Assembly (NCBI GenBank): GCA_964617805.1
Contig: CAZTWK010000004.1
Coordinates: forward strand, 15,860 to 79,859
Direction of reading: 5' to 3'
Origin: an uncultured Fibrobacteraceae bacterium
Lineage (GTDB): Bacteria; Krumholzibacteriota; Krumholzibacteriia; LZORAL124-64-63
DNA: 64,000 nt
How positions within the stretch are numbered: the stretch's first letter is position 1; every line of letters begins with the position of its first letter. The notes under the pieces were generated by a model. It had not been told where the DNA came from, did not search any database, and was given only the letters and a program-made list of their open reading frames with translations. The translations under genes and the position numbers were made by a program. This document shows positions 4,494 through 63,875 of this stretch, piece after piece.

Positions 4494-4711
4494 GTCTATC
4501 GGTATCGTCTCTCGTCTGATTAGGGGAGATTCGATCCGCACCTGCCATCCCGACGGCGCATACCATACCATCGCCACCAGCGGTGGTCGACGTGTGCGTC
4601 GCGGTGCAGGTCGTTGCGGGTCATGCGGACGCTCTCCTCCTCGTGGAGCGGACAACGTCGCCGCAAGAGGCGGCGACGTCCAGTAATGATACCGCATCCG
4701 GACGGCCCGGG

Positions 4712-6967
4712 TCAATCCCCCCGCGAGACATCCCCCCGCGAGACACGCCGTTCGCAATGGGGCCAGCGGTTCCGCAGCTGCCCCCGCAGGGTGGCGCCGT
4801 CGGTGGCCGGGGCCTCGCAGGCGCCGAAGCGGCAGACGTAGGCGGCCGGCGCGTCGTCGAGGGCCGTCTTGCCCCGGGCGCCCGGCAGCAGGGCGGCCAG
4901 GTCGTCGCCGGGTCCGCCCGCCGGCACCGCCGACAGCACCGCGTAGTGGGGATCCAGCTCCCAGAAGGCCGCGCGCAGGGCGGCGGTCCGCTCGGCGGCG
5001 GGATCGCCGGCGATCACCACCTCGTAGTGGGGCCCGTGGTACAGGGACGCGGCGTCGGCCCACCAGGCCATCTCCAGGCCCGCGCGGGCCAGCCAGTCGC
5101 CGTGGCGGGCGAGGATCTCCCCCACCCGTTCGCGCCCGGCGGGATCGCCGGCCAGGGCCGCCTCGCGCAGCAGGGCGTGCAGCATGGCCGAGGCCCCCGA
5201 GGGCTCCACGCTGTCGAAGAGGTCCACGCGGCGGCCGAGGGGCGCCTCGCCGCCGGCGGCGGTCAGGAAGAAGCCGCCCGCGGGGTCGGCGAAGAGCTCG
5301 CCGGCGGTGGCGAGCAGCTCCCGCGCCCGACGCAGGTCCCGCGGGTCGCCGCCGGCCTGGTAGAGGTCGAGCAGCCCGCCGGCCAGCAGGGCGTAGTCGT
5401 CGAGGATGCCCTCGCCGCTGCGCACGCCGTCGGTCGACGCGCGGCAGAGGCGGCCGTCGTCGTCGCGGTGCAGCTCCCAGAGGCGGTCGGCGGTGCGGCG
5501 CGCCGCCTCGAGATAACGGGCGTCGCCCAGCACGGCGTGGCCGCGCGCGAAGGCCGACAGGGCCAGGCCGTTCCAGGCGGTCACCAGCTTCCGGTCCAGG
5601 CCCGGCCACGTGCGCGCGGCGCGGTGGTCGTACAGGGCCTGGCGATGGCGATCGAAGAGACCGGCCATCTCGGCCTCGTCGCGGCCGAACTCGGCGGCCA
5701 CTTCCACGGGCGACACACGGCGTGTGAGGATGGACTTGCCCTCGAAGTTGCCCCCCTCGGTCACGCCCAGCAGGCTTGCCAGGACGGGGCCGTCCTCGGG
5801 GCCGGCCACCGCCGCGATCTCCGCCGGCGTCCACACGTAGAAGCTGCCCTCCTCGCCCCCGCTGTCCGCGTCGTAGCTGGCGTAGAAGCCGCCCGCGGGA
5901 TCGCTCAGGTCGCGCAGCATGAAGTCGAGCAGGTCCACGGCGATTTCCCGGTAACGCGCGTCGTCGAAGACCGTGGCGGCCTCCAGGTAGAGGCTGGCGA
6001 GCTGGGCGTCGTCGTAGAGCATGATCTCGAAGTGGGGCACCAACCAGGTGCGCTCGACGGTGTAGCGGTGGAAGCCGCCGCCCAGGTGGTCGTGGATACC
6101 GCCGCTGCCCATGGCCGACAGGGTGTGCCGGATGGCCGCCGCGAGTTCCGGGTCGCCGTTGCGGCGGTACTGGTGCAGCAGGAAGCGCCAGCGCAGCGGG
6201 GTGGGGAACTTCTGCTCCTGGCGGAAGCCGCCCCAGGTCTCGTCGTAGCTCTCGAGGGCCTCGGCGGCCAGGGCAGCCAGGGCCTCCGGTCCGGGCACCG
6301 CGTCCCCCTCGCGGACGATGTCGCGGGACAGGTGCTCGGCCACCCGCTTCGCCTGGCCCACGAGCTCGTCGCGTCGTTCGTCATAGGCGGTCGCGATGCT
6401 GCGGCAGAGGTGCAGGAACGGGTCGCGGGGAAAGTAGGTGCCCCCGAAGAAGGGCTCCAGGTCGGGCGTGAGGAAGGCGGTCAGGGGCCAGCCGCCGCGC
6501 CCGGTCATGGCCTGCACGGCCTCCATGTACACGGCGTCCAGGTCGGGGCGCTCCTCCCGGTCCACCTTGATGCAGACGAAGCGGGCGTTGACCAGGGCCG
6601 CCACCGCGTCGTCCTCGAAGACCTCGTGCTCCATCACGTGGCACCAGTGGCACGAGGCGTAGCCGATGGACAGGAAGATGGGCTTGTCCTCCTCGCGCGC
6701 CCGCGCCAGCGCCGCCTCCCCCCACGGATACCAGTCCACGGGGTTGTGGGCGTGCTGGCGGAGGTAGACGGAGCTCTCGTCGCGCAGGTGGTTGCCCTGG
6801 GCGCGGATCTGCGCGGGCGTGCGAAGCCCGTCGTCGCGGTCGGTCATGGCGGCTCCCGTGCACACGGCCAGGAGCGCCAGGAACGCGGCCGTGCGCAGAA
6901 GTGGCAAGACACGGCGTCGGCGCGAAGGCGCCGCCGCCTTATTGAGAACGGTTTTCATTCTGCACAT
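4712..6967 (-). CDS. thioredoxin-domain protein, DUF255/YyaL family (N-terminal thioredoxin-like fold plus six-hairpin glycosidase-like domain), secreted
   Basis: 751 aa. Signal peptide, then the hallmark DUF255 motif IGYASCHWCHVMEHEVFED. Long alpha-helical C-terminal domain. Confidence 0.8.
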   Translation of the reverse strand: MCRMKTVLNKAAAPSRRRRVLPLLRTAAFLALLAVCTGAAMTDRDDGLRTPAQIRAQGNHLRDESSVYLRQHAHNPVDWYPWGEAALARAREEDKPIFLSIGYASCHWCHVMEHEVFEDDAVAALVNARFVCIKVDREERPDLDAVYMEAVQAMTGRGGWPLTAFLTPDLEPFFGGTYFPRDPFLHLCRSIATAYDERRDELVGQAKRVAEHLSRDIVREGDAVPGPEALAALAAEALESYDETWGGFRQEQKFPTPLRWRFLLHQYRRNGDPELAAAIRHTLSAMGSGGIHDHLGGGFHRYTVERTWLVPHFEIMLYDDAQLASLYLEAATVFDDARYREIAVDLLDFMLRDLSDPAGGFYASYDADSGGEEGSFYVWTPAEIAAVAGPEDGPVLASLLGVTEGGNFEGKSILTRRVSPVEVAAEFGRDEAEMAGLFDRHRQALYDHRAARTWPGLDRKLVTAWNGLALSAFARGHAVLGDARYLEAARRTADRLWELHRDDDGRLCRASTDGVRSGEGILDDYALLAGGLLDLYQAGGDPRDLRRARELLATAGELFADPAGGFFLTAAGGEAPLGRRVDLFDSVEPSGASAMLHALLREAALAGDPAGRERVGEILARHGDWLARAGLEMAWWADAASLYHGPHYEVVIAGDPAAERTAALRAAFWELDPHYAVLSAVPAGGPGDDLAALLPGARGKTALDDAPAAYVCRFGACEAPATDGATLRGQLRNRWPHCERRVSRGDVSRGD

Positions 6968-7054
6968 GATAGTCGCAATGGAACCTTCTGCACCTCCCGG
7001 TTCAACGACGGCAAGCCCTTCCTCGTGGACGGGTCAGCTTTGATCCAACATCAA

Positions 7055-7198
7055 GAACAGATGAGTGGAGACGCTTCAGTCCGGGCGTCGGGAGGGGCCT
7101 GGAGCCACGGATGACGGATGGCCCCGCACGCCGAGCTGCCCGGCGACAGGACGTCGCCGGGCGGCGCCCCGGGCTGAAGCGTCTCCACTCATCTGTTC
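7055..7198. repeat. structured palindromic repeat, copy 3 (inverted orientation): 25-bp perfect outer stem, inner hairpin, diverged core
   Basis: gaacagatgagtggagacgcttcag (7055-7079) is the exact reverse complement of 7174-7198. Inner hairpin cccggcgac-aggac-gtcgccggg at 7139-7161. Core resembles copies at 20.5 kb and 52.1 kb (tggctccag motif). Confidence 0.6.
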
Positions 7199-7233
7199 GT
7201 GTTGATGATCACCAGGCATACGCGTCCACGCGC

Positions 7234-8208
7234 CTAGGACTTGCGCCCGACGATCACCTGGCTGTGCACGGCCACGTCGACGATCTCGAACTCGGCGAAA
7301 CCGGCGGCGCCCAGGGCCGCGACGGTCTCGGCGCGCGTGTAGGAGCGCCCCTGCTCGCTGCCCACCAGCATGTTCACGGCGAAGCGGGCGGCGAAGGGGG
7401 GCGCACAGCGGTCGTCGTCCAGGAAGAAGTCCTTCACCAGGATGCGGCCGCCGGGGACCAGAGCGGCGTGGGCCTTGCGGTAGATCAGGGCGATGGCCTC
7501 GTCGCCGAGGCTGTGGATGATGTTCGACACGTAGACCACGTCGAAGCCCTCGCCGAAGTCGTCCACGAAGTAGTCGCCCTCGACTGCGCGGACGCGGTCG
7601 CCCAGGTCCGTCGCGGCGATCACCTCGCGGGCGATGGCCACCGTCTCGGGCAGGTCGAAGACCACGCATTCGAGATCCGGATGGGCGGCCGCGAAGGTCA
7701 GGGCCGACGTGGCCGGACCGCCGCCGAGGTCCAGCAGGCGGCGGGCGTCGCCCAGGTCGACGCGCTCGACCACCTCGCGGCTCGACCCGCGCGAGATGTC
7801 GCGCATGCCGCAGATGTAGTCGCGGTGCTTGCGGGCCGAGGGGACGCGGGGCACCGGCCGTCCCGTGCGCAACGTCTCCTCGAGGCGCACCCAGCGCTTC
7901 ATGAGGTGGAAGTGGTGGGCGAAGATGTGGGACTGGGAGTTCTCGCCGTCGCGCAGCAGCAGCGCCGCGTTGTCCGGCGGCAGGCCGAAGCGCCCCGTCT
8001 CGTCCCGCGCCAGGACACCGGCCGCCGCCAGGGCGTGTAGCAGGATGTCCACCGCGCGTCCGTCCAGCTCCAAGCGGGCGGCCAGCTCCGCGGGGCGGTG
8101 GGCCTCGCGTCCGAGGGCCTCGATCAGGCCCGTCTGCAGGGCGGTCAGGAGGATGGCGGCGTTCTGATAGCCGTGCGCGAGCGTTTCCAGGCGTTCCTTG
8201 GCGTCCAT
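7234..8208 (-). CDS. class I SAM-dependent O-methyltransferase (with N-terminal dimerisation/winged-helix domain)
   Basis: 324 aa. LDLGGGPAT SAM-binding glycine motif. Overall plant/bacterial O-methyltransferase family architecture. Confidence 0.75.
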   Translation of the reverse strand: MDAKERLETLAHGYQNAAILLTALQTGLIEALGREAHRPAELAARLELDGRAVDILLHALAAAGVLARDETGRFGLPPDNAALLLRDGENSQSHIFAHHFHLMKRWVRLEETLRTGRPVPRVPSARKHRDYICGMRDISRGSSREVVERVDLGDARRLLDLGGGPATSALTFAAAHPDLECVVFDLPETVAIAREVIAATDLGDRVRAVEGDYFVDDFGEGFDVVYVSNIIHSLGDEAIALIYRKAHAALVPGGRILVKDFFLDDDRCAPPFAARFAVNMLVGSEQGRSYTRAETVAALGAAGFAEFEIVDVAVHSQVIVGRKS

Positions 8209-8357: not shown

Positions 8358-10223
8358 TTAGGGGATCGGCGTCGTTTCGAGCGGGAAGTCGTTCTGGGCG
8401 CCGGCGCCCCACTTGTGTCCCAACAGGTCGTCGTAGAACAGGTTGTTGGAACCGAACTTCAGCGACAACGCCTCGTAGCCCAGCATGTTCAGCGCCGCGG
8501 TGATCTGGCTGCTGTGCTGTCCGGTCCAGCAGTAGACCACGATGGGCATGTCCGTGGGCAGATGGCCCAGCATGGTCTCCATGCTCATGCTCGCGTAGGG
8601 CGTGAACTGGAAGGCGCCCGGGATGTGGCCCGGCACGCCGTCTTCGCCGACGCCCAGATAATCGTCCTCGTTGAAGTAGTTGACGACGAAGTAGTCCTCG
8701 AGGTTGTCCATGATGTCGGCGTACATCACGCCCTGGAAGCCCTCGCCGAGCATCCAGGCCACGCGGTCGGCCACCACGGTGCCGGCGTCGTAGCCGGCGA
8801 GCTCCGGATAGGCGTAGCCCACGAGGTCGCCGTTGTTGTTGTCGGTCTCGGCCACGGCCAGGGTGTTGTCCACGTTGTTGTTCCACGGACCGCTGAGGGT
8901 CGTGTTCCAGGCGGACATGCCGAACTTGAGGCTGCTCACGTCCTCGTAGCCCAGCAGCTCCAGGGAGATCTTGGCGTGGCCGGCGCTCTGGCCGGTGTAG
9001 CAGGCGACCACCATGGGCAGGTCGACCGGGATGGTCGTGCCCACGTCGGTCAGCAGCGTCGACAGCGACGAGTGGTAGGCGCCCGTGATGTGGCCGGCGT
9101 CGTAGTCGGTCTGGCTGCGGATGTCGATGACCGTGTAGTCCTCGAGGTTGTCGTAGAGGGCCTGCGCGCCCAGCACGCCGGGGCAGTCGCCGTTGTCGTT
9201 GACGTAGTCGACGACGGCGGCTTCCATGGCCGCGAACACCGGCGTCGGCACGCTGCCGATCTCCAGCTCGAAGTCGTAGGAGGCGCTCCACTTGTGGCCG
9301 GTCAGCAGACTGTGGAACAGGTTGTTGGAACCGAACTTGAGCGAGTAGGCCTCGTAGCCCAGCAGATTCAGGTAGGCCGTGATCTGCGAGGAGTGCTGAC
9401 CGGTCCAGCAGTAGACGATGATCGGCGTGTCCGTGGGCAGGTTGTCCAGCATCTGGTCGTCGCCGAGGCTGGCGTAGGGCGTGAACTGGAAGGCGCCGGG
9501 GATGTGGCCCGGCACGCCGTCTTCGCCGTTGCCGAGGTAGTCGTTCTCTCCGAAGTAGTTGAGGATGAAGTAGTCGTCGAGGTTGTCCATGATGTCGGCG
9601 TAGCTCTTGCCCTTGAAGCCCTCGTTGAGCATCCAGGCCACGCGCTCGGCCACCACCGTGCCCGCGTCGTAGCCGCTGAGGGCGGGGAAGTCGTGGGTGC
9701 TCAGGTCGCCGTTGTTGTTGTCGGTCTCGGGCGCGGCGAGGTTGTCGCCGCAGTTGGTGGTCCACTTGTCCAGCGAGGGGCTCCAGGAGGACATGCCGAA
9801 CTTCAGGCTGTTGACGTCGTCGTAGCCCATCAGCTCCATGGCGATCTTGGCGTGGCCGGCGCTCTGGCCGGTGTAGCAGGCCACCACGTAGGGCTTGTCC
9901 GCGGGGATGGCCTTGGCCGCCAAGTCGGCCAGCAGCGTGCCGAGCGACGAGTGGTACGCGCCGGGGATGTGGCCGGCGAGGTAGTCCGCTTCCGAGCGGA
10001 TGTCGATGACCGTGTAGTCCTCGAGGTTGTCGTGGAGGTTCTGGGCGTCGAGCACGCCGGGGCACTGGGCGTTGTCGTTGACGTAGGCCTTGCCAGCCGC
10101 CACCATGGCCTCGAACGCCGTTTCCTCGGGGGTCGGCGACGTGCCGTCGTCGGAGCAACCCCAGACGGCCACCATGGCGATCAGCAGCAATGCCGTCCAC
10201 ATCAAGCGCTTCTGCATTCTCAT
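8358..10223 (-). CDS. lipoprotein with four rhodanese-like sulfurtransferase domains (internal tandem duplication of a two-domain unit)
   Basis: Lipobox VWGC after the signal peptide. Two ~290-aa halves are clearly homologous. Each half carries candidate active-site loops CYTGQSAGHAK and CWTGQHSSQ. Good SD (GAGGAG) before the start. Confidence 0.8.
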   Translation of the reverse strand: MRMQKRLMWTALLLIAMVAVWGCSDDGTSPTPEETAFEAMVAAGKAYVNDNAQCPGVLDAQNLHDNLEDYTVIDIRSEADYLAGHIPGAYHSSLGTLLADLAAKAIPADKPYVVACYTGQSAGHAKIAMELMGYDDVNSLKFGMSSWSPSLDKWTTNCGDNLAAPETDNNNGDLSTHDFPALSGYDAGTVVAERVAWMLNEGFKGKSYADIMDNLDDYFILNYFGENDYLGNGEDGVPGHIPGAFQFTPYASLGDDQMLDNLPTDTPIIVYCWTGQHSSQITAYLNLLGYEAYSLKFGSNNLFHSLLTGHKWSASYDFELEIGSVPTPVFAAMEAAVVDYVNDNGDCPGVLGAQALYDNLEDYTVIDIRSQTDYDAGHITGAYHSSLSTLLTDVGTTIPVDLPMVVACYTGQSAGHAKISLELLGYEDVSSLKFGMSAWNTTLSGPWNNNVDNTLAVAETDNNNGDLVGYAYPELAGYDAGTVVADRVAWMLGEGFQGVMYADIMDNLEDYFVVNYFNEDDYLGVGEDGVPGHIPGAFQFTPYASMSMETMLGHLPTDMPIVVYCWTGQHSSQITAALNMLGYEALSLKFGSNNLFYDDLLGHKWGAGAQNDFPLETTPIP

Positions 10224-19840: not shown

Positions 19841-20440
19841 ATGGCCAGCAAGTCGAGCGGACGGACCCGGACCAGCTACTACGAGGTCGTGCTCTGCGGT
19901 CCCCACGACCTGATCCACGGCCTGCTCACGGGATTGGCCATCGGCGCCGGCCACGAGGCGACCATCGAGTACGGCCACGAGCGCGGCATCTCCGACCGCT
20001 CCCTGCGCGAGAAGCTGGCCGACGTGTTCCGTCCCGGCGGCCACGAGTGCCAGGTGATCCTCGACAACACCACCCGCGGCCTGCTCAAGCGCAAGGCCCG
20101 GCGCCTGGCCCTGGAGACGGGTGTGGAGCTGTGCTCCGAGCGGAGGATCAGCAGCGCGGAATTCAAGTTCCGCTACGTGACCTACGCCCCCCGCTACGCC
20201 GACGAGATCGCCGGCCTGCTCGGCGGCCTGCCCAAGGGCGCGCGCCTGGTCAGCCACGAGCGGGAGGAGAAGATCAATCCCGCGGCCAAGGGCGCCGAGG
20301 GCTACACCCCCGTCCACGACTACGAGGTCAAGGGCGGCGGCGAGATCCGCGGGCGCGTCGATCTGATCCTCGATGCGCACGAAGCGCTCGATCGACATCC
20401 GCTGATCGAGGTCTCCGAGATAGAGCTCGAGACCGTATAG
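19841..20440 (+). CDS. hypothetical protein (199 aa), likely co-transcribed with the transporter
   Basis: SD GGGAGG 6 nt before the ATG. No recognisable family. Confidence 0.55.
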   Translation: MASKSSGRTRTSYYEVVLCGPHDLIHGLLTGLAIGAGHEATIEYGHERGISDRSLREKLADVFRPGGHECQVILDNTTRGLLKRKARRLALETGVELCSERRISSAEFKFRYVTYAPRYADEIAGLLGGLPKGARLVSHEREEKINPAAKGAEGYTPVHDYEVKGGGEIRGRVDLILDAHEALDRHPLIEVSEIELETV

Positions 20441-20476
20441 GCGCACTCAGAAAGCGCATGTTGTACCTCAGGAGCC

Positions 20477-20620
20477 GGATCCTGGGTATGACGCCCTGCT
20501 CCGGGGGCCGCTCACCGCCGACCTCATGTCGGCGGCTCGCTCGAATTCCGGGCCCTTCCGACCTCCATGTCTCCAGGACCCTTCATACGCCCCCGGAGCA
20601 GGGCGTCATACCCAGGATCC
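20477..20620. repeat. structured palindromic repeat, copy 1: 31-bp perfect outer stem, inner hairpin, conserved core
   Basis: ggatcctgggtatgacgccctgctccggggg (20477-20507) is the exact reverse complement of 20590-20620. Inner hairpin ccgccgac-ctcat-gtcggcgg at 20515-20535. Core ctcgctcgaattccgggcccttccgacctccatgtctccaggacccttcatacgc is shared with the copy at 52.1 kb. Confidence 0.65.
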
Positions 20621-20751
20621 TCCTCTCAGGTGCAACACGGCTTCCGAGTGCCCATACGGACCAAGCTCGGGATCGCGAAACCTCGAGGCCGCGCCTGCCT
20701 ACCAGGCACGGCCCGCCTTTCGACCCCGGATATGCTGCAAGCTAGGGAAAG

Positions 20752-20855
20752 AAAAGGGAGAGGGCGATGTGCCCTCTCCCGGAATGCTCCGCGCAGCGCA
20801 AGCGAGCGCAGCGAGCGTGCTGGAGGGAGAGGGCACATCGCCCTCTCCCTTTTCG
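20752..20855. terminator. pair of identical hairpins in opposite orientation (bidirectional terminators) between convergent genes
   Basis: H1 aaaa-gggagagggc-gatgt-gccctctccc (20752-20780) and H2 gggagagggc-acatc-gccctctccc-ttttc (20825-20854) are reverse complements of each other. Each is followed by a T-run on its own strand. Confidence 0.5.
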
Positions 20856-52006: not shown

Positions 52007-52075
52007 GGTCTGATCCCTCCCGTTTATCCGACCGAATCCACCTGACATACGCATCATCTCATCTATTGGTTGCAA

Positions 52076-52209
52076 TGTGCGTGCGGGGGCTATTCCAGGG
52101 GCCGCGAGCCGGTCACCTCCTGTGACCGGCTCGCTCGAATTCCGGGCTCTTCCGCCCTCCATGGCTCCAGAGCCCTTCATACGCCCCTGGAATAGCCCCC
52201 GCACGCACA
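52076..52209. repeat. structured palindromic repeat, copy 2: 26-bp perfect outer stem, inner hairpin, conserved core
   Basis: tgtgcgtgcgggggctattccagggg (52076-52101) is the exact reverse complement of 52184-52209. Inner hairpin gccggtcac-ctcct-gtgaccggc at 52108-52130. Core is about 90% identical to copy 1. Confidence 0.65.
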
Positions 52210-52254
52210 GGGCTTAGCCTTCTACAGACAGTCTCCTTACCGTTCCACCTCTGG

Positions 52255-52335
52255 TTGATATATTGCACTATTGTAATTATTGATGACGTTATTATGTGAT
52301 TTGTGATATAATAACATCAATGAAGAAGCTGCAAC
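52255..52335. promoter_or_regulatory. strongly AT-rich island (promoter region)
   Basis: gttgatatattgcactattgtaattattgatgacgttattatgtgatttgtgatataataacatcaatg contrasts sharply with the GC-rich surroundings. Multiple TATAAT-like hexamers on both strands. Confidence 0.4.
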
Positions 52336-52458
52336 CGTCGGTGACGTCTCGGGATTCGGTTAGGCCTCTCGCTACCTGGGGAACTCGGGTGACCACGGAA
52401 GCGGCTTCTTTTCCAGAGACCCCGTGCGGGGCGGGGACATTGGAATCTTCACCAAGTG

Positions 52459-52492
52459 AAAACGGGCTCCGGAGACCTCCGGAGCCCGTTTC
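52459..52492. terminator. bidirectional intrinsic terminator
   Basis: Perfect 14-bp stem aaacgggctccgga-gacc-tccggagcccgttt, flanked by A-run and T-run. Lies immediately after the M16 peptidase gene. Confidence 0.6.
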
Positions 52493-61916: not shown

Positions 61917-62027
61917 GGCCCCTCCCCCGATACGATCACGAATATCGAAGCCTGATACGAACTCCAGCCTACAATGTTCGCGGACGGATTGCACAGGCCA
62001 ATGAAGAGACACCGGGACCTTACCTGA

Positions 62028-62115
62028 GCCGATCCGGGTGGACAGAGAGACGCGCCAGAATTGATGCGCTTCGCGGATGCAATTCTGGCGCGTCTCTCTG
62101 TCCACCCGGATCGGC
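62028..62115. repeat. 88-bp hairpin with 36-bp perfect stem and 16-nt loop, abutting the ctp stop codon
   Basis: gccgatccgggtggacagagagacgcgccagaattg (62028-62063) is the exact reverse complement of 62080-62115. No U-run follows on either strand. Confidence 0.6.
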
Positions 62116-62117
62116 CC

Positions 62118-63875
62118 TCAGTGTACGGCCGTGGCAGTCTCATCCTCGGCCTGTGCAACCCTCTCCGCTTCCCACTCCGCGGCGATCGCCAGCAGGTCCG
62201 TGGTGGTCCGGGCCCGCTTGAAGATCTCGAGGGTTTCCTGGAGCTGCACGTCGTCCTCGATGGCCACCTGGTAGGCGGCCTGGGGGCCGAAGTTGCGGCG
62301 CATGAGCTCACGGCGGATACCCTGGCGGATGTAGTCGGCGTTCTCGGCCAGCAGGTCGTCGGTGCGCACCAGTTCGTAGACGCCGAGGTACTCGTCGATC
62401 TTCTCGCGGGTGCCGAGGTGCTCGGCGAAGGTCGCCAGCATGTCCGCGTCGACCACCGCGTCGCGGCCGACCTCGTGGTGGGCCGACCAGGTGGTCGCGA
62501 AGCTGAAGAGGGCGCCGTCGCGCTCCAGCGCCACCTCGAAGTCGGTCAGGAAGGGCTGCTCGATCTCGATGTCCGGGGTGATGCCGCCGCCACCGTAGAC
62601 GATGCGGCCGGCGTCGGTGCTGAACTTCTCCTTCTCGTCGCGCGGGACGTCCTGCTCGATCTCGGCCGCGTCGCCCTGGCCCTCCAGCGGCGCCTCGGTC
62701 AGGTCGATGTCGCTGTCGTCCTCGTGGCGGTCCTTGTGGATGGAGCGGCCCGACGGCGTGTAGTACTTGGCCGTGGTCAGCTTCAGGGCGCGGTCGTCGC
62801 TCAGGGGGAAGACCGTCTGCACGGTGCCCTTGCCGAAGGTGGTCTTGCCCACCACCATGCCCAGGTCGTGATCCTGGATGGCCGCCGAGACGATCTCGCT
62901 GGCCGAGGCGGAGGAGCCGTTGACCATGACGATGGTCGGCAGCTCGGTGCGGCGCTGGGTGCCGGCGTCCTCGGCGTAGTAGCTGCGGTTCTGGCTGCGC
63001 AGGCGGCCCTTGGTGTAGACGATCAGGTCCCCGTCGTCCAGGAAGAGCTCGCTGACGCCGTTGGCCGACTCGAGCAGGCCTCCGGGGTTCCAGCGCAGGT
63101 CCAGGATCAGGCCGCGCGCGCCCTGGCTCTCCAGTTCGGCCAGTTTCTCGACCAGCTCGTCGGTGGTCGTGCGGGAGAAGTTGGCCACGCGGACGTAGCC
63201 GATGTCGTCGATCATGAAGGCGTAGGGAACGCTGTCCACCTGGATGATGTCGCGGGTGATGGTCAGGGGGAAGGGATCGTCGAGCCCCTCGCGTTCGATG
63301 GTGATGGTGACCTGGGTGCCCGGCTCGCCGCGCAGCAGCTTCACGGCGTCGTTGCTCGTGAAGTCGAGGGTCGTCTCCCCCTCGATCTCGATGATCTTGT
63401 CGCCGCCCTGGATGCCCATCAGGAACGCGGGCGTGCCTTCGATGGGCGAGACCACCGTCGGGTAGTGGTCCCGGATGTTGATGGTGATGCCCAGGCCGCC
63501 GAACTCGCCCTCGGTGGACATCATCAGGTCGTCGTAGAAGCTGGGCGGCAGGTACTGGGTGTGCTCGTCCAGGTAGTCGAGCATGCCCTCGATGCCGGAT
63601 TCCAGGAGCTCGTAGGCGTCCACGTCCTCGACGTAGTTGTAGAAAACCCGCTCGTAGACGCTGCCGAGAATCTTCAGTCCGTCCAGGAACTGCTGGCGAT
63701 CAGTGCCCCGGCCGGTGTCTTTGGCCTGCACGGAGCCCTGCCAGATCGGCACCAGCACCAACACCGCAAGCGCCAGCACGGAGCAGGCACGGCGGAGGAT
63801 CGGAGAGTGAAACCTCTTGGCGGCGTTCATTTTGTCTTCATCTTCCGTTGGTGGAGACGGCGCTGTCTTGCCCAC
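62118..63875 (-). CDS. ctp: carboxyl-terminal processing (tail-specific) protease, S41 family
   Basis: 585 aa. PDZ domain. S41 catalytic region GLILDLRWNPGG...TFGKGTVQTV. Signal peptide. Confidence 0.85.
   Translation of the reverse strand: MGKTAPSPPTEDEDKMNAAKRFHSPILRRACSVLALAVLVLVPIWQGSVQAKDTGRGTDRQQFLDGLKILGSVYERVFYNYVEDVDAYELLESGIEGMLDYLDEHTQYLPPSFYDDLMMSTEGEFGGLGITINIRDHYPTVVSPIEGTPAFLMGIQGGDKIIEIEGETTLDFTSNDAVKLLRGEPGTQVTITIEREGLDDPFPLTITRDIIQVDSVPYAFMIDDIGYVRVANFSRTTTDELVEKLAELESQGARGLILDLRWNPGGLLESANGVSELFLDDGDLIVYTKGRLRSQNRSYYAEDAGTQRRTELPTIVMVNGSSASASEIVSAAIQDHDLGMVVGKTTFGKGTVQTVFPLSDDRALKLTTAKYYTPSGRSIHKDRHEDDSDIDLTEAPLEGQGDAAEIEQDVPRDEKEKFSTDAGRIVYGGGGITPDIEIEQPFLTDFEVALERDGALFSFATTWSAHHEVGRDAVVDADMLATFAEHLGTREKIDEYLGVYELVRTDDLLAENADYIRQGIRRELMRRNFGPQAAYQVAIEDDVQLQETLEIFKRARTTTDLLAIAAEWEAERVAQAEDETATAVH

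Follow-up and report, generated by a model that had tools for sequence, protein, structure and literature searches.

The 64,000-nt stretch of chromosomal DNA analyzed here (the window; 69% G+C, 97.7 to 99% identical to a 115-kb JGI metagenome contig) contains three copies of a noncoding palindromic repeat, at positions 20477 to 20620 (+ strand, copy 1), 52076 to 52209 (+ strand, copy 2), and 7055 to 7198 (− strand, copy 3). Homologues of its genes carry source names of Krumholzibacteriota and of Gemmatimonas-like bacteria, which makes the host an uncultured member of the FCB group that is probably Krumholzibacteriota-like. With a probability that we put at roughly 0.5, the repeat is a dispersed palindrome, selfish or semidomesticated and similar to miniature inverted-repeat transposable elements (MITEs) and REPINs, that has a functional core and arms renewed by template switching, and is not a dedicated RNA gene. 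The family is undescribed in the libraries searched and is kin to the intergenic palindromic repeats of bacteria (MITE/REPIN-like); its design, a conserved center between sequence-free arms, is unusual. The units are 134 to 144 bp long, usually lie a few to about 35 nt past a stop codon, and often form the tip of a longer, older, and imperfect hairpin.

Copies and shared architecture

All three copies fold into one three-way junction composed of a long helix, hairpin 1, and hairpin 2, with a core of about 80 nt, and their folding energies lie 10 to 15 standard deviations below those of shuffled sequences. Hairpin 1 has a common design of a stem of 8, 13, or 10 bp (copies 1, 2, and 3, respectively) and a five-base loop, NUCMU, while in hairpin 2 a symmetric internal loop separates seven pairs from three pairs, which are capped by a six-base loop. 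In copy 1, whose strand is that of the CCUCC-loop reading and which is supported by the fold, the covariance model, and the absence of exactly 144 bp from same-species contigs (L040 to L043; see below), the left arm (20477 to 20508) pairs perfectly with the right arm (20589 to 20620); the arms comprise 32 bp of perfect pairing (37 nt at 95%) and are 80 nt apart. Hairpin 1 of this copy (20515 to 20535, + strand) has an 8-bp stem (20515 to 20522 with 20528 to 20535) and the loop CTCAT (AUGAG on the other strand), and its hairpin 2 (20550 to 20581, + strand) comprises GGGCCCU/AGGACCC, internal loops, GAC/GUC, and the apical loop CUCCAU (ACAUGGAGGU on the other strand). Copy 2 has arms at 52076 to 52102 and 52183 to 52209 (27 bp, perfect, 80 nt between them), hairpin 1 at 52104 to 52134 (13-bp stem, loop CTCCT), and hairpin 2 at 52144 to 52175. 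Copy 3, a member of subfamily B, has arms at 7055 to 7085 and 7168 to 7198 (25 bp perfect, or 31 bp with one C·A that is G·U on the other strand; 82 nt between them), hairpin 1 at 7138 to 7162 (10-bp stem, loop GTCCT on the − strand), and hairpin 2 at 7094 to 7125.

A covariance model built from the family and run on the window, also with filters off, matched exactly these three copies, and ten distinct loci in the window plus the relatives' regions scored 78 to 131 bits. Seven loci are thus added from related uncultured genomes, which are probably Krumholzibacteriota-like; the core pattern search contributed one in a contig of a metagenome-assembled genome (L001, representative genomes) and five in a metagenome assembly (L002 to L006). 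Orthologous regions from the same species and about six related species were collected by look-ups of the neighboring proteins, and the comparisons below rest on about 10 independent loci and cover about 400 kb of these genomes. Assemblies with such loci are JGI 3300009128 Ga0118727, JACKQG01, GCA_964607825.1, and GCA_018814885.1. In viral contigs the core pattern gave a chance match only, and blastn of copy 1 gave no match in plasmids. An Rfam search of the whole window returned nothing at gathering score and, in E value mode, only matches to miRNA precursors (generic long hairpins) and subthreshold matches to the CsrB clan.

In an alignment of the ten loci, 91% of the cells are paired and 22 of 38 pairs change on both sides, a count reached by none of 500 shuffles and far from reached by slid controls; changes on one side only are almost absent, as are G-U intermediates. 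Between copies 1 and 2, 5 of the 55 core positions differ, and four of the five form two compensatory pairs in hairpin 2 (GGGCCCU/AGGACCC versus GGGCUCU/AGAGCCC and GAC/GUC versus GCC/GGC). The 18-mer core motif occurs twice against an expectation of 0.18. Between copy 1 and its orthologue in a sister species (L017), the junction and hairpin 2 are 96% identical (52 of 54 positions) and hairpin 1 is 70% identical, and subfamily B (copy 3 and L028) has diverged by about 30% in the core and yet retains fold and loop motifs. Two stem alleles of hairpin 1, GGTCAC and GCCGAC, are mixed among paralogues, and even the orthologues differ (GCCGAC in copy 1, GGTCAC in L017, both recurring in paralogues), which suggests that hairpin 1 alleles have been exchanged between copies. 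Judged by these alignments, the constrained parts are the junction, hairpin 2, and the hairpin 1 loop, with a constraint on sequence as such only in the junction and hairpin 2.

The innermost 9 to 11 bp of the outer stem (TGTTCCGGGGG/CCCCCGGAACA) are kept between copies and common to subfamily A. Six to seven copies have a further, outer block in common, AAGCCCTGG, and the approximately 12 bp between the two blocks differ; within subfamily A, this middle part of the arm is much more variable than the parts that flank it. Copies 1 and 3 differ from the other copies over the whole arm. Copy 2 is followed by an unpaired terminal motif, GGGCTTAGCCTTC (52210 to 52222, + strand), that is the counterpart of the outer motif of subfamily A (AAGCCCTGG/CCAGGGCTT). 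In the subfamily A copies L002 to L006 and L001, the outermost sequence on the left, GGGGCGAAGCCC, could form a very stable GCGAAGC minihairpin.

As a description of the family, the original prediction, made from the window sequence alone, is borne out by these comparisons, with some corrections: three copies at the above-mentioned positions, all intergenic and in both orientations; a core of about 90% identity in copies 1 and 2; and compensatory covariation in a conserved fold, now upheld on ten loci. The searches that it had proposed, with a covariance model and a core pattern, brought up further copies in related genomes, and the comparison with Rfam brought up no family match. Its shared inner-hairpin loop is real, but the loop is NUCMU and not Y-T-C-M-T, and the stems have 8 to 13 bp instead of 8 to 9 bp. 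Its outer stems of wholly different sequence describe most of the arm but not the innermost 9 to 11 bp.

The prediction had also set the family apart from the textbook MITE, and we agree: the middle of the arms varies and the center is conserved. Like REP sequences and REPINs, the units are short, noncoding, and intergenic, form single-strand hairpins, occur in both orientations, lie mostly just past genes, and are present or absent in close relatives. In REPINs, however, it is the arms (REP sequences, 5′ GTAG) that are conserved and the center that is free, whereas the present family combines a conserved center with arms that are free over most of their length; the arm ends carry no GTAG, and REPINs are mobilized by RAYT transposases, of which no gene was seen in the roughly 400 kb accessible. 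The Correia elements of Neisseria, ERIC/IRU of enterobacteria, SMAG, and RUP/BOX are comparable in size (100 to 200 bp), in forming long hairpins if cotranscribed, in inserting near gene ends, and in having filled and empty sites among strains. In those families, the terminal inverted repeats are common to the whole family and the target duplications are of a defined kind (TA for Correia), whereas only the innermost 9 to 11 bp, plus an outer 9-bp block in one subfamily, are shared here. Integron attC sites differ by their R″-L″/L′-R′ boxes (GTTRRRY), which are lacking here along with a cassette array and an integrase, and retron msr-msd by a reverse transcriptase downstream, which is likewise lacking.

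Evolution of the arms

Between the window and L017, coding sequence is 88% identical, third codon positions are 79.5% identical, and the outer arms (unpaired flanks) are 74 to 76% identical; the stems, at 75 to 79% (79% for the left and 75% for the right arm of copy 1), equal the third codon positions and flanks, so that the stems drift at the neutral rate and are then rematched. The window copy has no arm mismatch in 31 bp and the L017 copy five in 32; by our own estimate, a change of about 11% per lineage and arm makes zero mismatches very unlikely without correction. The stem changes that separate the two species on both arms comprise substitutions (CTGCTCC versus CTCTTCC) and an indel. The perfect inner stem of the window copy resembles the left arm of L017 more than the right one, as expected if the left arm had recently been copied onto the right. 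Where the outer left arm differs from the outer right arm, it does so in both species, and such differences are therefore old.

Pairing depends on the distance from the core: it is perfect over about 30 bp and then about 70 to 75% over the next 65 to 85 nt (the span by which the imperfect palindrome exceeds the perfect part in copies 1 and 3), and the outer arms are significantly palindromic in 7 of 8 copies (z = 6 to 12). In copy 1, copy 3, L028, and L006, the outer arms take in the last 33 to 40 nt of the adjacent gene, and the opposite outer arm is an inverted, noncoding copy of the gene end that matches the version of its own species. The outer left arm of copy 1 (20406 to 20476; z = 12), which is kept in the empty allele, includes the last ∼35 nt of a gene for a 199-amino-acid (aa) protein (stop codon, 20438 to 20440), and the outer right arm (20621 to 20686) is the inverted noncoding copy of this gene end and of the sequence downstream. 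At copy 3, one outer arm (7199 to 7268; z = 8) includes the last ∼33 nt of an O-methyltransferase gene (stop codon, 7234 to 7236), and the opposite one (6989 to 7054) is the inverted noncoding copy of that end, an arrangement that recurs in L028 with species-specific matching.

Hairpins without the core behave in the same way. The hairpin after an S41 protease gene (window positions 62028 to 62115; also 61986 to 62161) has 36-bp perfect arms, and in four species this hairpin has near-perfect arms of 22 to 36 bp that differ in sequence. In L035, approximately nine positions of the arms differ, all with compensation, and the 16-nt loop is exactly reverse complemented; still other near-perfect arms are found in L036 and L038, and the outer repeat of L036 enters the coding end. 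The bidirectional terminator at 20751 to 20854 has kept 30-bp perfect arms around three different centers in three species. As a separate observation, the same-species contig L032 has a single mismatch in the S41 hairpin, at window position 62053. The idea that the element itself makes the outer arms, as an inverted duplication of the flank, was rejected as a general rule because the outer hairpin persists in the copy 1 allele that lacks the unit and because core-less hairpins also reach coding ends.

Template switching between the arms of inverted repeats, a replication-linked process, makes the arms uniform, lengthens them, and turns spacers around (PMC8794818, PMC8604942, PMC13100816); the mechanism is also documented in PMC5941160. 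The stems described above share with such quasipalindromes the multibase compensated changes and indels, the homogenization and outward growth of arms, the inversion of a spacer, the lack of G-U intermediates, and the neutral rate (PMC8794818, PMC8604942, PMC13100816). Since the arm patterns match this published signature, no selection on an RNA is needed to account for them, and the perfect, copy-specific stems are best explained by DNA copying of one arm onto the other and not by selection on an RNA fold. The covariation of the stems is real, yet it is weak evidence for selection at the RNA level: the argument of the original prediction, that perfect pairing with changed sequence betrays selection on structure, is unsupported at least for the long outer stems, given their neutral rate, the likeness of the window's perfect stem to one arm of the orthologue, the like behavior of core-less hairpins, and the extension of the palindromes into coding ends. 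Template switching differs from the family in being a mutational process and not an element, and it accounts for the arms but not for the conserved, dispersed core. In the literature searched, we found no description of it in a bacterial repeat family of this design.

We propose that, during replication, a nascent strand would fold back and pair with itself beside the core and then copy one arm onto the other. The copying would reach a variable distance outward, giving perfect pairing near the core and decaying identity beyond, and would also produce compensated substitutions and indels, an occasional loop inversion, and the spread of the palindrome into adjacent gene ends. No long hairpin in these genomes would be exempt from this switching. 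Because of its own long hairpin, the unit would further be liable to deletions between short direct repeats at its base. Purifying selection would keep the junction and hairpin 2, which are, as our best guess, the module that is recognized, as a single-stranded hairpin, by whatever spreads or uses the element.

The arms would then be a natural example of a pitfall, in that "compensatory covariation" of a long helix can arise by DNA copying without selection on RNA structure. Controls are built into the same genomes: core-less hairpins with perfect but differing arms, an inverted loop, palindromes in coding ends, and stems evolving at the neutral rate. At the same time, the family is a repeat of inverted design from a poorly known phylum, with a strongly constrained module of about 55 nt whose loops look like protein-binding sites.

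Presence, absence, and interpretation of the unit

Whole units come and go: related species, and also contigs of the species from which the window comes, differ by the presence or absence of the complete block. At the copy 1 site, four independent same-species contigs (L040 to L043) lack exactly 144 bp, with CAGGA at both junctions (CTCAGGA|TCCTCC in the empty allele; CTCAGGA|GCCGGATCC...CCCAGGA|TCCTCC in the window), and have identical flanks and an identical 199-aa protein. The left member of this 5-bp direct repeat lies at 20469 to 20473 and the right member at 20613 to 20617. The sister species (L017) has the element at this site, next to a 199-aa protein of 84% identity; of more distant relatives, L022 has arm fragments only, and L026 and L028 have a plain bidirectional terminator. 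At the copy 3 site, the spacer between the methyltransferase and DUF255 genes measures 276 bp in the window species versus 32 bp in L016, and the site is empty in L016, L022, and L026; the outgroup L028 has a subfamily B copy at the same site and in the same orientation, with different stems and with the hairpin 2 stem flipped (GGCCCC/GGGGCC versus GGGGCC/GGCCCC in copy 3). Three relatives (L036/L037, L038, and L039) have an empty site where the window has copy 2. BLAST of the flanks found no significant element remnants at the empty sites. The coexistence of filled and empty alleles in one species would permit direct tests of the unit's effect on the neighboring gene.

At the copy 2 site, L035 (12430 to 12530) has a different, partly palindromic, and rearranged sequence that begins with GGGGCGAAGCCCT and contains both orientations of AATTCGGG/CCCGGAAT; it may be a rearranged derivative of the element.

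Several points weigh against a MITE/REPIN-like palindrome with arms renewed by template switching. Switching is read here from patterns in the DNA and was not observed in action, neither a mobilizing enzyme nor a master copy nor an unambiguous target-site duplication was found, and the independent loci number only about 10. A check for such duplications had been proposed in the original prediction, and CAGGA does bound the 144-bp indel of copy 1; however, it fits a 5-bp target duplication and a microhomology deletion equally well, and at copies 2 and 3 no duplication is clearly readable, the empty sites being too diverged. Long palindromes provoke deletions between short repeats at their base. 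Since the sister species carries the element, deletion in some strains is a more parsimonious explanation of the polymorphism than a new insertion. Copy 3 and its L028 orthologue keep the core fold and the loop motifs at a protein identity of 69% in the neighboring gene, a depth of conservation that looks more like a host function than like junk, and simple drift does not predict the more variable ∼12 bp in the middle of subfamily A arms.

A host function could lie in RNA on the strand opposite to that of the original prediction, and we regard this as unlikely. The element would be a structured regulatory RNA whose GGA motifs bind one dimer of a CsrA/RsmA-like protein per copy; a copy would serve as a decoy or, within an untranslated region, as a cis site, with the outer helix as a stabilizing or RNase III-processed handle. 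On this strand, both hairpin loops, both sides of the hairpin 2 internal loop, and the junction present GGA; the total in subfamily A is five, and two of the five stand in loops with the pattern AC-A(N)GGAN-GU. Hairpin 1 reads ACAGGANGU in 10 of 11 copies, with the variants CAGGAUG (L003 and L028), CAGGAAG, CAGGAGG, and CAGGACG, and hairpin 2 has the apical loop GACAUGGAGGUC in copy 1 and CCACGGAUGA in copy 3 (across copies, the hairpin 2 loops are ACAUGGAGGU, CCAUGGAGGG, CCACGGAUGA, or ACGGAC). The CsrB repeat is CAGGA(U/A/C)G, and the consensus from in vitro selection (SELEX) is RUACARGGAUGU, a six-base loop closed by AC/GU; paired CsrA sites lie 10 to 63 nt apart (PMC7652899), a range that includes the approximately 40 nt between the two GGA loops here. 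The resemblance to CsrB/RsmZ and TwoAYGGAY (Rfam clan CL00106) thus consists of two A(N)GGA loops closed by AC/GU and three single-stranded GGA on one strand, and the Rfam matches on this strand are to TwoAYGGAY (26.5 bits) and rsmX. They stay far below the gathering thresholds (26.5 versus 43 bits and 11 versus 56 bits, respectively), however, and the TwoAYGGAY match disappears once the window is trimmed. Mismatches in the core are A·C on the written strand, hence G·U on the GGA strand, in 11 cells versus 1; against this, the bias amounts to about six independent events, the outer arms are even (18:17), and G·T is also the best-tolerated mismatch in single-stranded DNA. In each of the three copies the GGA strand gives the more stable fold, orthologues are 96% identical over the junction and hairpin 2, and copy 2 lies in the GGA sense between a promoter-like site and the gene for an 88-aa protein. 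Yet at five of seven independent loci the transcript of the neighboring upstream gene would carry the UCC strand and not GGA, no promoter or terminator of the element's own was found, copy 1 is dispensable within its species, and the hairpin 1 stems, at 8 to 13 bp, are longer than CsrA prefers (PMC7652899). The dispersed, dispensable, and mostly wrongly oriented units, with a perfect helix of 25 to 32 bp around the core, subthreshold scores, and no transcription signals of their own, also differ in these respects from CsrB and TwoAYGGAY. tblastn with CsrA, RsmE, and FliW gave no match in the approximately 400 kb of DNA fetched, a coverage too small to be informative.

On the other strand, the unit could be a host cis element of mRNA 3′ ends, serving the upstream gene as a terminator or as a barrier to 3′ exonucleases; the core would then be a common loop inherited by or exchanged among hairpins, with CCUCC loops that might act like an anti-Shine-Dalgarno sequence on the sense transcript. 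Five loci do start 5 to 35 nt past a stop codon, so that the upstream gene's transcript would carry the CCUCC strand; copy 1 tips an older hairpin whose outer pairing CCGTAT/ATACGG also occurs in the plain terminator of L026; and hairpin 1 of copy 2 reads UCACCUCCU. The long perfect hairpins at the ends of neighboring genes, moreover, are true terminators, complete with T-runs (20751 to 20854 and 52445 to 52490). A G+C-rich hairpin, however, needs a T-run directly after it to be an intrinsic terminator, and none follows any of the three copies: the terminator scan calls only the separate hairpin at 20756 to 20780, copy 1 is followed by a bona fide bidirectional terminator of its own standing, and copy 2 comes after the terminator of an M16 peptidase gene and before the next gene, with the opposite orientation. 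At all three sites, sister species or strains do without the element, and only UCC, not CCUCC, is conserved (the loops also read AUCCU, GUCCU, and UUCCU). Together these findings leave a role at mRNA 3′ ends improbable. That the family is an artifact, whether of chance palindromes or of metagenome misassembly at inverted repeats, we consider hardly credible. Contigs do break inside the element (L002, L003, and L042 to L046), L005 has a foreign left arm on its copy 1 orthologue, and L044 has a flipped core at a ragged contig end; but the same sequences are found in independent JGI, ENA, and NCBI assemblies, fold z scores of −10 to −15 argue against chance palindromes, and the empty allele, seen in four samples, needs junction k-mers that are absent from the filled allele. 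We also see a slim chance, better than that of a 3′-end element and poorer than that of a CsrA-binding RNA on the GGA strand, for a more daring proposal: the core might be a self-propagating "hairpin-tip" module that moves between terminator-like hairpins without a dedicated transposase, and/or the copies might form a multilocus GGA-loop decoy for a CsrA-like regulator, in a phylum without such a known system. Such a module would move by template switching or gene conversion between hairpins, seeded by the G-rich inner stem, and switching within the hairpin would then rebuild perfect arms from local sequence.

Two candidate variants were discarded on assembly grounds. L005, taken at first sight as an orthologous stem with noncomplementary arms, was dropped, as an assembly chimera or a recombinant is more likely because L017, from the same species, has a matching left arm. 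The flipped core of L044 was set aside as a possible contig-end artifact. It belongs to the window-species contigs that end inside copy 1 (L044, core flipped at 1880 to 1933; L045, different left arm at 1870 to 1882), and both variants could be either assembly artifacts at an inverted repeat or real population variants.

Neighboring genes and other features

Distances of 13 kb and 31 kb separate the copies, which are surrounded by housekeeping genes; window genes include a Trp operon, a seryl-tRNA synthetase, a C25 peptidase of the type IX secretion system type, and M16 peptidases. The neighbors are the 199-aa protein and the C25 peptidase for copy 1, an M16 peptidase and the 88-aa protein for copy 2, and the methyltransferase and the DUF255 protein for copy 3. 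No transposase, reverse transcriptase, or integrase gene is among the genes of the window, and no transposase was found in the fetched loci either.

Copy 1 lies between the stop codon of the 199-aa gene (20440) and the separate bidirectional terminator (20751 to 20854), which also serves the convergent C25 peptidase gene. In this terminator, each arm is itself a hairpin (GGGAGAGGGC-GATGT-GCCCTCTCCC), there are T-runs on both strands, and the spacer of 44 nt is conserved. It is 98% identical in the sister species, where both differences form one compensating pair, and in the third species the center is TGGTATA and the arms are still perfectly matched.

Copy 2 lies downstream of the M16 terminator (52445 to 52490), upstream of the gene for the 88-aa membrane protein, which starts at 52007, and downstream of a promoter-like site on the minus strand in an A+T-rich palindrome (52291 to 52320). 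The region from 52255 to 52320 comprises this palindrome (TTGATGacGTTATTAT...ATAATAACatCAATGAA), which stands out in a genome of 69% G+C and has divergent sigma-70-like promoter matches, and its GCAATATATC is conserved in relatives. It is probably the operator-promoter region of the 88-aa gene.

Copy 3 lies between two codirectional genes, for the methyltransferase and the DUF255 protein. A motif conserved in five species, TATCCTGTGCG-N-ATGAAAACCRTTCTCAA, precedes the DUF255/thioredoxin gene or lies at its start (window positions ∼6950 to 6985 on the − strand, L016 at 4603 to 4635, and L028 at ∼5870 to 5900). In L028 it reads GTGAAAATCGTTCTCAAATAG and includes a stop codon, and therefore it may be a noncoding leader or a tiny upstream open reading frame instead of the gene start. 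Elsewhere in the window, a rhodanese domain gene contains two segments of 840 bp each (8403 to 9241 and 9282 to 10120) that are 81% identical to one another, an internal tandem duplication of coding sequence.

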